Shown in pieces: positions 21,709 to 25,724 of a stretch of DNA of 29,559 nt. The first letter of the stretch is position 1. Each line of letters starts with the position of its first letter. Source of the stretch: a virus (Duplodnaviria; Caudoviricetes); the IMG/VR virus record IMGVR_UViG_3300042528_000247, positions 1-29,559 of that record, one strand, 5' to 3'. The notes under the pieces were generated by a model. It had not been told where the DNA came from and searched no databases. It saw only the letters and a program-made list of their open reading frames with translations. Both the position numbers and the translations under genes were made by a program.

Positions 21709-21893
21709 GGTTTTTGATTTTCTAGTTCTCTGACTTTCCTTTCAAGTGCTTCAAGTCTCACGAAAACCGATGCGCGGCGTTCAAGTTCAATCAGGTCGCA
21801 AATCAGGCGCGATGCGGACGAGTCGCGTTTGCGAGCCTCGGCTTGCGTCCACGCGAGCAAATCGGCGGGCATTGATACTGAGGTTTTTGTCAT
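21705..21893 (-). CDS. ribbon-helix-helix (CopG/Arc-like) DNA-binding protein
   Basis: MTKTSVSMPADLLAW...SASRLICDLIE: alternating beta strand followed by two helices. Confidence 0.7.
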   Translation of the reverse strand: MTKTSVSMPADLLAWTQAEARKRDSSASRLICDLIELERRASVFVRLEALERKVRELENQKP

Positions 21894-22921
21894 ATCATTC
21901 CTTCGCTGAGTATTCGCCATGCGAGAGCGGCGCATTGCGGCACTTGTCCGTTTCCAGTGGCTTTAAGTCTGTCCACCCTAGAGGCCACCCCATAAGCCAC
22001 TCTACCCACGGCGGGTTCAGCGATCCACCATTTGCATCCGGCTTCACCGCTGTTGACAATCCAATTTGCTTGCCAATTTCTATCCGTCTCTTTACGGCGC
22101 TGTCGCTCATGTTCCCGCGATCCCGATTGTCTGACGCTTGCGGTGTCGGCCAGGTTTTCATCCGCGCAGGGCGCAATGTCCCCTCCGCCATTCCCTCCGC
22201 CATTCCCTCCGCCAATACTCCCGCGTCCACTAGCTCCCGCAGTTGCAATATCGCACCCTCCGATCTCCATCCGTTCACTGTTGGCGTCGGCCATTGTCTC
22301 CTCCCCACTACTGTTTCCAGATTCGGAAACCTGTCCGCCCATGCTGATTCCGGCGTTATCGTCGCGGACATAGCGGAGCAACTTCGGGGAGTCGGCCAAG
22401 TATCCAAGTATCCAGATTCGCTCCCGCTTGTGAGGGGCCCCGGAATCGCAAGCTCCAAGCACACACCATTTCGCATCATACCCCATCGCGGCCAAGTCTC
22501 TAAGGACGACTCCAAGTCCTCGAATAGTGAGCATTGGCGAGTTTTCCACGAACACGTAACGGGGTCTAACTTCGCAAACCACTCTTGCCATTTCTCCCCA
22601 TAATCCGCTTCGCTCTCCGCTGATACCAGCTCCTTTTCCTGCACTTGAAATGTCTTGGCAAGGAAATCCGCCCGCGACGACTTCGACAAGTCCTCTCCAC
22701 GGCTTTCCGTCGAATGTTTTAACATCGTCAAAGATGGGAAACCAAGGAAGGAAACCGTCTTTTTGCCGTGCGTGTAGGACTTGCTGGCAATAGGGTTCGA
22801 TTTCGACAGCGCAGACGGGTTGGTGTCCGAGTAGTATGTCGGCAAGTATCCCGCCGCCAGCCCCCGCAAAAAGGTGGAGAGTTCTGAGTCTGTGCAATTT
22901 ACTGGTGTGTTCATAATTCAT
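21890..22921 (-). CDS. C5-cytosine DNA methyltransferase, alpha chain (motifs I-VIII and X)
   Basis: LFAGAGG, VEIE, GGFPCQDIS, ENSP, HKRERIW and RLKATGNGQVP; the ATG at 22921 overlaps the stop of the DnaC-like gene. Confidence 0.92.
   Translation of the reverse strand: MNYEHTSKLHRLRTLHLFAGAGGGILADILLGHQPVCAVEIEPYCQQVLHARQKDGFLPWFPIFDDVKTFDGKPWRGLVEVVAGGFPCQDISSAGKGAGISGERSGLWGEMARVVCEVRPRYVFVENSPMLTIRGLGVVLRDLAAMGYDAKWCVLGACDSGAPHKRERIWILGYLADSPKLLRYVRDDNAGISMGGQVSESGNSSGEETMADANSERMEIGGCDIATAGASGRGSIGGGNGGGNGGGDIAPCADENLADTASVRQSGSREHERQRRKETDRNWQANWIVNSGEAGCKWWIAEPAVGRVAYGVASRVDRLKATGNGQVPQCAALAWRILSEGMI
21895..22914 (-). CDS. overlapping +1-frame ORF, putative methyltransferase beta chain (motif IX)
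   Basis: 339 open codons, three WPTP repeats and C-terminal LNPPWVEWLMGWPLGWT (motif IX-like); true start uncertain. Confidence 0.72.
   Translation of the reverse strand: MNTPVNCTDSELSTFLRGLAAGYLPTYYSDTNPSALSKSNPIASKSYTHGKKTVSFLGFPSLTMLKHSTESRGEDLSKSSRADFLAKTFQVQEKELVSAESEADYGEKWQEWFAKLDPVTCSWKTRQCSLFEDLESSLETWPRWGMMRNGVCLELAIPGPLTSGSESGYLDTWPTPRSCSAMSATITPESAWADRFPNLETVVGRRQWPTPTVNGWRSEGAILQLRELVDAGVLAEGMAEGMAEGTLRPARMKTWPTPQASDNRDRGNMSDSAVKRRIEIGKQIGLSTAVKPDANGGSLNPPWVEWLMGWPLGWTDLKPLETDKCRNAPLSHGEYSAKE
22181..22214. repeat. 12-bp tandem repeat CCCTCCGCCATT, about 2.8 copies
   Basis: Read directly; encodes GGGN repeats in the alpha frame and AEGM repeats in the beta frame. Confidence 0.9.
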
Positions 22922-23637
22922 ATCGCTGGTTTCTCTCTGAATGACTCCCATTCGCAAGGGATGATCCCGCCGTGTTCGTTCAGCCGGGAGATAATGGAGG
23001 GGCTTGTAGCCTTGGAAAACTCGATTGCGGATTGGTTGCTGATTAAAAGCGTGTCCTTTTTCGCGGCGTAGCGTGCGTCTAGTATGTCGGACAGTATGCG
23101 GTCTTTGTGTCTGCTATCGTCGGCTACTTCGTGGAGTTCGTCTATGATGAGCAGGTCAAGCGCGTGCGTTAGAAACTCCTTATACGCCTCTAGTCTCGCC
23201 ATATCGGTTGTGCCAAAATCACCGTAGAACGCCTTGAGCTTTGCGACTATCGTTGTGAGTTTTGTGTAGTGAAACCATGAGCACTTCGCCGTGCCATGCT
23301 CTGCCCAAAGCCGATCAATGACGTATTGCGCGGCAATCTGAGTTTTACCAATGCCTCTTTGACCTATCATCGCGGCGATTGCGCCCTTTCCGCATAGCAT
23401 ATTGGTCAATGCCGCCAGTGTGCGCTTTTGAAGCACACAGCGCCCGTCTGCGCCGTCCATTAGGCCATCGGCGCGATAACGGCACTCAAAGCCAAATCTT
23501 TTTAGCTGCGGGGCGATGTATGCTTTAAAGTCGTAGGCGTGGCGCTCGGCTTCGGTCGCTGGCTTTATTTCGGCCAACAGTCTTTCAACCGCCTCGACGA
23601 TTCCAAGTTCTCCCGTGTGTTTTGGGGTGTCGGTCAT
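22918..23637 (-). CDS. DnaC/IstB-like AAA+ helicase loader
   Basis: Walker A GQRGIGKT, Walker B LLIIDE, 'ILDARY', 'LLISN', 'SRL' and 'WESFR'. Confidence 0.9.
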   Translation of the reverse strand: MTDTPKHTGELGIVEAVERLLAEIKPATEAERHAYDFKAYIAPQLKRFGFECRYRADGLMDGADGRCVLQKRTLAALTNMLCGKGAIAAMIGQRGIGKTQIAAQYVIDRLWAEHGTAKCSWFHYTKLTTIVAKLKAFYGDFGTTDMARLEAYKEFLTHALDLLIIDELHEVADDSRHKDRILSDILDARYAAKKDTLLISNQSAIEFSKATSPSIISRLNEHGGIIPCEWESFREKPAI

Positions 23638-24419
23638 ATTGTGATGATTTTCCCCACAATGGTTTCGGGATATTCGCCCGATCTACGGTTCTGAGGGCTT
23701 CCGGCCTTTTGACTTGGGAAGAATCCGCCGCGTTGCCAAGTTCGCATCGCCGCTTTCCAATCCTTCACGGGCTTTCCGTTTGCCGTAAATCCGTTTGAAA
23801 GCCAGCCGTCAAACTTGAACGCGCCGTCATTCTTGGTAAGCCCTAGCTCTACTGCATACGCTTCAACTTCCTGCTGAGTCGGCTTTTTAGAAACAATAGA
23901 AGGCGAAGCCGCTTCTTGTTTTTTGGAAATGGAATCAGGAATAGGAGACGGAGACGGAGACGGAGACGGAGACGGAGACGGAGACGGAGACGGAGACGGA
24001 GACGGAGACGGAGACGGAGACGGAGACGGAGACGGAGACGGAGAGTTGCTATTCGGTTGAGCCTTTGGTTGCCCACTCGGTTGAACCGTGGTTGAACCGT
24101 GGTTGAACCGAGCCTTGGCGGAAGCCTTGCCTTTGGCCGATTGTCCGGCGCGATACAAACGCTGCTTTTCTCTTTCAATTTCCATGCGCTCGTTTCTCAG
24201 CTTGCCGTCAGGACACAAAGCAAACTTGTGAGTGATTGCGTTGATCTCGTTTTGCCCGCACCTTGCCAAGTCTGACAACTTAGCGGTGTCGTTCGGAAGA
24301 AAGCCCAAATCCCACTGATAGCAAAGTAGTCGAATATACGCGCCCACTTCAACGCATGAAAACAGGGCCGTGCCGCCAAGAAAGTTGTCGGGATAGAATT
24401 GAAACGCGGGAGGCTTCAT
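23634..24419 (-). CDS. replication initiator, DUF1376/YdaU-like N-terminus
   Basis: 'PAFQFYPDNFLGGT...EVGAYIRLLCYQW', 'LRNERM', C-terminal 'KDWKAAMRTW'; directly upstream of the loader. Confidence 0.85.
   Translation of the reverse strand: MKPPAFQFYPDNFLGGTALFSCVEVGAYIRLLCYQWDLGFLPNDTAKLSDLARCGQNEINAITHKFALCPDGKLRNERMEIEREKQRLYRAGQSAKGKASAKARFNHGSTTVQPSGQPKAQPNSNSPSPSPSPSPSPSPSPSPSPSPSPSPSPSPSPSPIPDSISKKQEAASPSIVSKKPTQQEVEAYAVELGLTKNDGAFKFDGWLSNGFTANGKPVKDWKAAMRTWQRGGFFPSQKAGSPQNRRSGEYPETIVGKIITI
23944..24044. repeat. perfect hexanucleotide microsatellite (GGAGAC)16 plus partial unit
   Basis: Counted 96 bp (23944-24039) plus GGAGA; encodes a Ser-Pro run in the initiator. Confidence 0.97.
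24054..24110. promoter_or_regulatory. putative replication origin iterons
   Basis: GGTTGAACCG(T) three times at an 11-bp period (24079-24110), plus degenerate GGTTGAGCC and GGTTGCCC; inside the initiator gene, as in lambda O. Confidence 0.65.
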
Positions 24420-25047: not shown

Positions 25048-25425
25048 TTATGGGTAGGTTATCGTGATTTGCGTGTGCTCTTCCTCGCCTTTCGCGGCTT
25101 TGCGTTGCGCGGTTTCGAGCGTGATTTTGTCGTGCTCATCTCCCGCAACAAGGCCGATGCGTCGGCAACAGTCGAGCAACCATTTAACGCTAACATTATC
25201 GGGATCGATAAGGCGTTTTCGGACAGAGATAAACTTGAAATGAACTCTTCCAGATGCTTCTTTTTTTCCTTTGCTCGCTGCCAATGGTTCATCGCAAGCA
25301 GCGCGTTCCAGCTTGGCAATCTGCCCATCACTTTGAATGTAAGGTTTTCCGTAGTCTTGTTCATTTGCGGCGATTAGTGATTGAGATGCGTGAGGAAAAA
25401 GGCGGCGGATTGTGTGCGGGTTCAT
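25048..25425 (-). CDS. RusA-like Holliday junction resolvase, catalytic half
   Basis: 'RKRLIDPDN...KWLLDCCRRIGLVAGDE' matches the RusA D-x-D-N..K...D....G....DD pattern; C-terminal 'TQITIT' strand. Confidence 0.75.
   Translation of the reverse strand: MNPHTIRRLFPHASQSLIAANEQDYGKPYIQSDGQIAKLERAACDEPLAASKGKKEASGRVHFKFISVRKRLIDPDNVSVKWLLDCCRRIGLVAGDEHDKITLETAQRKAAKGEEEHTQITITYP
25059..25364 (-). CDS. nested +1-frame ORF carrying a RusA-like N-terminal segment
   Basis: 'LTFKVMGRLPSWNALLAMNHWQRAKEKKK' resembles the beta1-PSxN-helix start of RusA-like proteins. Confidence 0.6.
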   Translation of the reverse strand: MNKTTENLTFKVMGRLPSWNALLAMNHWQRAKEKKKHLEEFISSLSLSENALSIPIMLALNGCSTVADASALLREMSTTKSRSKPRNAKPRKARKSTRKSR

Positions 25426-25724
25426 ACTGCGCGCCACACGGTTGCCTTCTTGCCGCTATCGTTCGTCCGCGTCTCTCCCGTGTCGGCAATCTTGCCAAGC
25501 GCGAGCAATTCAGTCAGGCGAGGTCGGATTGACAAAAGCGACTTGCCAACTTCCGCCGCGCACTCGTCAGCGGTCAGGTCTTCATGAAACAGAACGTCTA
25601 GCACCTTTTGCCGCAACGTGGGCGCTTTCTCGCGCATCGAATCAGCAGCCGCCTTGGATGTGCCGCCGCGCTTGTAGCCGGGGGCGCTAGGGTATCGCGC
25701 AAAGTCTAGTTCGGGATGGTTCAT
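25422..25724 (-). CDS. winged-helix DNA-binding protein
   Basis: 'TSKAAA...LRQKVLDVL...LTADECAAEVG...IRPRLTEL...G.I.DTG..R...SGK.A.VW'. Confidence 0.8.
   Translation of the reverse strand: MNHPELDFARYPSAPGYKRGGTSKAAADSMREKAPTLRQKVLDVLFHEDLTADECAAEVGKSLLSIRPRLTELLALGKIADTGETRTNDSGKKATVWRAV

Follow-up and report, generated by a model that had tools for sequence, protein, structure and literature searches.

RusA-like resolvases, represented by Escherichia coli RusA and related phage proteins (1Q8R, 2H8C and 2H8E; PF05866; phrog_34 and phrog_1682), are single chains of about 120 aa whose dimers cleave Holliday junctions with Mg2+. According to PMC1636454, the RusA monomer consists of four strands and two helices and dimerizes, with D70, D72 and D91 forming a cation site and residues 13-16 seeming to contact DNA. 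For M.EcoHK31I, PMC2836561 describes a single methyltransferase made of two chains, alpha and beta, in which the coding sequence of beta lies inside that of alpha in a different frame, both chains are needed for activity, and the nested chain supplies motif IX.

The locus analyzed here lies in IMGVR_UViG_3300042528_000247, a 29,559-base linear virus fragment (CheckV completeness 28%) whose whole length is referred to as the window, and it comprises an open reading frame, B, and a second one, A, nested within it (Table 1). As in RusA, the gene stands amid recombination and replication genes, and B aligns with RusA residues 48-117 and has equivalents of D70, D72, N73, K76, D80 and D91 (D74, D76, N77, K81, D85 and D96, respectively, in the hhalign residue pairs). 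Unlike RusA, B is missing the strand and helix of the N-terminus, for both of which a candidate is found in frame +1; it carries a variable N-terminal extension, and the positions of R69 and D90 fall on I73 and G95 of the window copy, while A adds a second helix and a basic tail. We have filed the locus as a RusA-like variant that departs from the family in not being a single chain and in falling below the Pfam cut-off. With M.EcoHK31I it would share a two-chain, nested-frame architecture; unlike that system, it would encode a nuclease rather than a methyltransferase, in which the nested chain A would provide the N-terminal portion of the fold. The overlap spans 306 of 378 bases. A third point of comparison is A_AAA_AAG, the -1 frameshift heptamer of dnaX and of IS3-family transposases. 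This one genome carries that heptamer in the proper frame; unlike in dnaX and IS3, the heptamer is not conserved, has no clear stimulator, and follows an upstream frame that is conserved and remains open far past the site.

The overlapping genes form part of a minus-strand module identified by PHROG and Pfam matches in the window, in the order Sak4-like annealing protein, SSB, HNH protein, phrog_1123, A/B, replication initiator, DnaC-like loader and C5 methyltransferase. No second RusA match was found elsewhere in the record, which says little for a fragment of this completeness. Both reading frames and the heptamer reported by the first-pass annotation are present, and the ATGA arrangement that it had noted at the start of B is confirmed as an overlap of the ATG with the stop codon of the upstream gene. 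B occurs at 100% identity in three further viral contigs, and positions 25075-25438 are covered by contigs from four lake DNA runs, with no indel listed within the gene; the identity of these independent contigs speaks against the single-base indel or assembly error considered earlier. One contig from run X4 has a joint between 25104 and 25394 at which 289 bases of the gene are either missing or replaced; its short side counts just 30 letters. Six RNA or possibly RNA runs contained just 5-9% of the sequence words and carry no weight here. Family members in genome assemblies were found under Verrucomicrobiaceae, Planctomycetales, Actinomycetes and Poriferihabitaceae, three of them on short contigs. 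Within the same module, the replication initiator (23634-24419) contains a long (Pro-Ser)n repeat at 23940-24050, arising from a 6-base tandem repeat.

Table 1. Coordinates of the overlapping reading frames and associated features in the window.
Feature	Position	Strand	Description
Upstream gene	25422..25724	(-)	phrog_1123, function not known; its TGA stop overlaps the ATG of B
ORF B	25048..25425	(-)	125 aa; variable N-terminal extension and RusA-like catalytic part (strand, helix, strand, strand); phrog_34 E 0.0045
B N-terminal extension, residues 1-57	25255..25425	(-)	two short helices, then coil; unrelated among homologues
B catalytic core, residues 60-125	25051..25248	(-)	hhalign alignment; model residues 53-125 on 1q8r_A 48-117
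ORF A	25059..25364	(-)	101 aa; lies entirely within B, in the +1 frame; own ATG; pI 11.1
A conserved core, residues 8-45	25230..25343	(-)	P17-S-W-N20 after a strand-like segment; then a helical turn (19-24) and a long helix starting at 27; omega_A 0.28
A_AAA_AAG heptamer	25260..25266	(-)	reads AAAAAAG; A codons 33-35 GAA AAA AAG; part of a lysine run in A
Dual-constraint zone	25216..25251	(-)	end of A helix (F41-L45) and first strand of B (R60-V68) on the same bases
A C-terminal part, residues 59-101	25062..25190	(-)	predicted second helix 59-82 and basic tail over the catalytic core of B

Comparison of the B profile with that of 16 annotated single-chain RusAs placed B residues 58-123 on RusA 52-115 (hhalign 91.9%, E 7e-7), and the catalytic segment reads D74-P-D76-N77..K81..D85..G91..D96-E97. 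Across 65 non-redundant family loci, the equivalent of N73 is present in 60 and an Asp in the RusA 91 region in all 65; D-x-D and the Lys were used for picking and anchoring loci, which makes their own 65/65 circular. A pair of Asp residues occupies the D90-D91 position in 37 of these loci, the first being replaced by Gly in the window copy. With regard to the arginine-rich DNA-binding segment of RusA (65-69), both arginines of B R69-K70-R71 are invariant across 27 sequences, RusA R69 itself aligning with I73. The match of B to phrog_34 is weak (E 0.0045); within the family, phrog_34 is matched by 18 of 27 members and phrog_1682 by 10 of 27. Neither B nor the rest of the record matched PF05866 above the cut-off, and this domain is assigned to 17% of the members in one Atlas neighbor cluster. 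Searches of solved structures by sequence with the B and A profiles returned no RusA, yielding 11 and 3 unrelated chance matches, respectively.

The AlphaFold2 model of B contains strands at 61-69, 101-109 and 117-123 and a helix at 80-89, with residues 23-60 as coil (pTM 0.53). Compared with 48,161 chains (VIA), its best match is RusA 1q8r_A (66 residues aligned over RusA 48-117, rmsd 2.8) with a Z of 4.5, which is a middling fold score, though one that agrees with the sequence evidence; the next match has a Z of 3.6. Since B covers only RusA 48-117, it lacks one strand, one helix and the DNA-contacting turn. RusA 1-47 is left uncovered by the model, so B alone does not appear as a complete RusA fold, and the earlier impression that its first ~55 aa do not resemble RusA agrees with a variable extension over residues 1-57 and a RusA match beginning at about B53-58. 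By sequence and model, B is thus shown to hold the C-terminal catalytic part of a RusA-like protein, of predicted activity. The A core was found within the same chain in none of 155 B-type proteins.

The nesting of A in frame +1 relative to B holds in both coordinates and frame, and it extends to the family. Selection of loci by B alone gave 109 (105 by a B-only DNA pattern and 4 from genomes). After removal of 2 for insufficient length and of 47 duplicates, 60 remained. The A-core profile was matched in frame +1 in all 60 (13-88 bits) and above 0 bits in the frame of B in none; some of the B-chosen contigs had also fed the A profile, which makes the top bit scores circular. Pooling of loci and removal of those at least 90% identical resulted in the set of 65, of which 58 were B-selected and which form 37 clusters at 70% identity. 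The strand-PSxN-helix motif is present in frame +1 in 65/65 loci and in a near-fixed register, the PSxN proline lying at -110 bases from the first catalytic Asp in 58, at -107 in 5 and at -116 in 2. An ATG precedes the A motif in 58 of the 65 loci and an ATG, GTG or TTG in every one, compared with a control in which ATG was found in the +1 frame of ordinary genes at 15% of 1651 positions; the sequences upstream of A starts are unrelated between groups. On the question raised by the first-pass annotation of whether both frames stay open in homologues, A is open from D-45 to D+123, over the core of B, in 64/65 loci, whereas synonymous recoding of B gives an expectation of 4.8. In each of 43 loci compared, frame +2 is interrupted by stops over the 5' segment. 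B has an ATG upstream of its first strand in 53/65 loci, other B start codons being outside this count, and the three loci with a stop in frame B after the last possible start of A each have a B ATG inside A. The two-frame layout is therefore far beyond chance.

With E at most 0.001, a profile search of 1.84 billion proteins identified 264 of A type. The same layout is found in BK063671 (vir555_00024; host written as Methanomicrobiales) at L268:1507-1794, where A is annotated and B, in the -1 frame, is unannotated. Several loci depart from the common pattern. Two A/B copies about 1.7 kb apart on one 33-kb contig (L042 and L043) have near-identical cores and unrelated 5' ends, a sequence pattern that suggests module exchange. 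L016 and L017 are divergent, with an altered A motif and a two-residue insertion after D-x-D in B; their B N-terminus nevertheless matches that of the window, which points to recombination within the gene. Seven A-type chains of 183-195 aa (P0143, P0150, P0165-P0168 and P0204) share a common N-terminal extension of ~90-100 residues, and in a 249-aa protein from one contig (P0177) the N-terminal part of a C5 methyltransferase (PF00145) runs into an A-type chain.

Selection on the two frames was estimated from 28 disjoint pairs drawn from 80 indel-free sequences, as pairwise, uncorrected omega values with the 5th-95th percentile of 60 bootstrap replicates. Over the 5' part (D-141 to D-46), omega_A is 0.28 (0.21-0.33) and omega_B 1.33 (1.05-1.59), revealing constraint on A only and no purifying selection on B over the core of A. 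In the dual-constraint zone (D-45 to D-10), both A (0.52; 0.38-0.64) and B (0.39; 0.27-0.56) are constrained. Over the 3' part, omega_B is 0.19 (0.14-0.24) and omega_A 0.61 (0.53-0.72), a value that may partly reflect constraint on B. Together with the layout, these results demonstrate that A is a real, selected gene that is open family-wide.

The core of A presents its elements in the order seen at the RusA N-terminus: a strand-like segment, P-S/T-x-N, a helical turn and a long helix. The A model is extended over residues 1-18, forms helices at 19-24, 27-52 and 59-82, and ends in a disordered tail. Modeled singly, neither chain reaches a confident fold (pTM 0.53 for B and 0.43 for A), and the low pTM and disordered tail of the A model fit a chain that needs a partner. 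The strand-PSWN segment of A falls on RusA 3-15 with an hhalign probability of 3.0% (E 0.015), and of 1.0% in a second comparison; full-length A gave 0.2%, on a different segment. RusA PHROGs were matched by none of 27 A members, the start of phrog_1682 being matched weakly by 2 of 25 other A members (E 0.023 and 0.22), and in two tests 6 and 5 of 21 RusA N-termini scored above the 95th percentile of shuffles. Pfam held no match for A and the PHROGs no clear one, and the Atlas gave no usable one. The earlier proposal that the start of A resembles the strand-PSxN-helix of RusA thus stands for the motif, the predicted secondary structure and the complementarity to B, and is weak for the profile scores (hhalign 0.2-3.0%). 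We regard A residues 8-45 as a candidate equivalent of the first strand and first helix of RusA, with a weak, motif-level case for homology given profile scores of 1-3%.

A close one-chain relative bridging A and B was not found in the searches made. Annotated phages yielded one weak match to B and none to a second B; 301 genomes from the phylum of G001 contained ordinary one-chain RusAs only and no A-core match; and none of 35 B-type proteins from the last homologue search had an A core. An interleaved arrangement of the two chains found no support: B covers RusA 48-117 in one run, and the C-terminal half of A matched no part of RusA.

The reading that we favor, and hold to be likely, is that two conserved overlapping genes with their own start codons give rise to two separate chains that would assemble into one RusA-like Holliday-junction resolvase. 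The evidence supports a RusA-like protein split between two frames, and the two-chain model that the first-pass annotation had placed second emerges as the better of its two: A has a start codon in 65/65 loci and B an ATG in 53/65, each frame is under selection, and A stays open in 64/65. An unlikely alternative is that A is a real overprinted protein with a role other than that of a RusA N-terminus, acting as a regulator, inhibitor or DNA-binding partner, and that B is a truncated nuclease working alone or with another protein. The weak profile scores between A and RusA, the second helix and basic tail with no RusA match and the lack of a usable Atlas match are consistent with such a role; against it, B is one strand and one helix short of the RusA monomer with its four strands and two helices, the A core has elements in the matching order, the best local alignment in two hhalign comparisons falls on RusA 3-15, and A and B co-occur in 65/65 loci.

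We consider it quite improbable that a programmed -1 frameshift fuses the beginning of A with the core of B into a single RusA-like chain of 105 aa, the fusion put forward in the first-pass annotation. The codons, heptamer position and product length given for it are all correct, A_AAA_AAG is in frame here, and the resulting order of motifs would be right. RusA/RuvC also appears among genes known to contain a frameshift in PMC10885494, which cites refs 35-42 for its list, ref 40 being a 1991 ruvC paper. The heptamer is however not conserved: A_AAA_AAG occurs in frame A in 4/65 loci, three of them at the position seen here. Counting every X_XXY_YYZ from the PSxN proline to the first strand of B gives 6/65, all of them A-runs, and counting up to D-x-D gives 7/65. 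Its presence is not beyond chance, since it occurs in only 4/65 loci, codes for part of a lysine run in A and has AAAAAAG present five times in the window. As in the first-pass annotation, no strong stimulatory Shine-Dalgarno sequence or hairpin was seen, the best fold in the 40 nt 3' of the heptamer reaching -5.9 kcal/mol (window copy only, without a shuffle control) and AAGGA being present in the 20 nt 5' of it only where it abuts the A-run.

The course of A beyond the heptamer also argues against a fusion. The site lies midway along the predicted helix 27-52 of A, which remains conserved and open 3' of it: the F41 position is hydrophobic in 95% and the L45 position in 92% of the 65 loci. 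As the F41-L45 codons share bases with the first strand of B, no single fusion can hold both. No passing of constraint from one frame to the other was seen at the heptamer, omega_A and omega_B 3' of it being 0.52 and 0.39. Any -1 fusion would place 37 residues between the proline and the Asp, compared with 58-83 in 15 of 16 RusAs (one unscored), which leaves it short by 21 residues or more. Hypothetical chains in which A passes into B at A codons 27-37 scored 12.5-14.0 bits against the RusA profile, a small gain of up to 2 bits over B alone (12.0). Parts of B were found in one chain with A in 7 of 201 A-type database proteins (P0153, P0192, P0247, P0278, P0306, P0191 and P0281), a point in favor of a fusion; but all seven lack the first strand of B and most lack D-x-D, and by their sequences they are probably deletions, indels or mis-assemblies. 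The ATG that B has of its own upstream of its first strand in most loci is a further argument against the frameshift. The heptamer is thus incidental and not a family trait, although some slippage at it may occur in this one phage.

An assembly error, decaying pseudogene or chance shadow frame, which could be suspected from gene callers usually reporting just one frame and from the lack of Pfam or clear PHROG matches to A, is refuted and has next to no probability left, given identical independent contigs, the layout in 65 diverged loci from 37 clusters, the A-core matches in 60/60 B-chosen loci, purifying selection in both frames, the openness of A far above expectation and the stops in frame +2.

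In the two-chain resolvase that we favor, B would be translated by coupling to the stop of the upstream gene and A from its own ATG. A would contribute the strand, PSxN turn and helix missing from B, completing the fold, and the A-B unit would dimerize like RusA into an A2B2 assembly that could cut branched DNA made by the phage recombination and replication module; the extra helix and basic tail of A (pI 11.1) may assist the binding of DNA or of B. More tentatively, and as a possibility that we rate well below the two-chain reading itself, this large family of uncultured viruses, one of them assigned to an archaeal host, might build an A2B2 Holliday-junction nuclease from ~300 doubly coded bases, in which A adds a helix and a basic DNA-binding arm encoded over the catalytic codons of B and the ratio of starts sets the amount of active nuclease.

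If this reading is right, one stretch of DNA encodes two chains that together complete a nuclease fold. We found such a layout documented in a methyltransferase but in no resolvase, and searches of open-access full text revealed no description of a split or overlapped RusA, in line with the first-pass annotation, which knew of no split or recoded example. The reading would also expose a conserved gene that usually goes missing from annotation, as callers report either B or A. Since both frames are selected on shared bases, the locus also constitutes a compact test case for an intact gene becoming two overlapping ones.

The same minus-strand module contains a second fully overlapped pair of reading frames, at 21890-22921 and 21895-22914. 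One encodes a C5 DNA methyltransferase (PF00145, phrog_363), and the other, a 339-aa open reading frame in frame +1, matches phrog_1008 (DNA methyltransferase), in a layout that resembles that of M.EcoHK31I.
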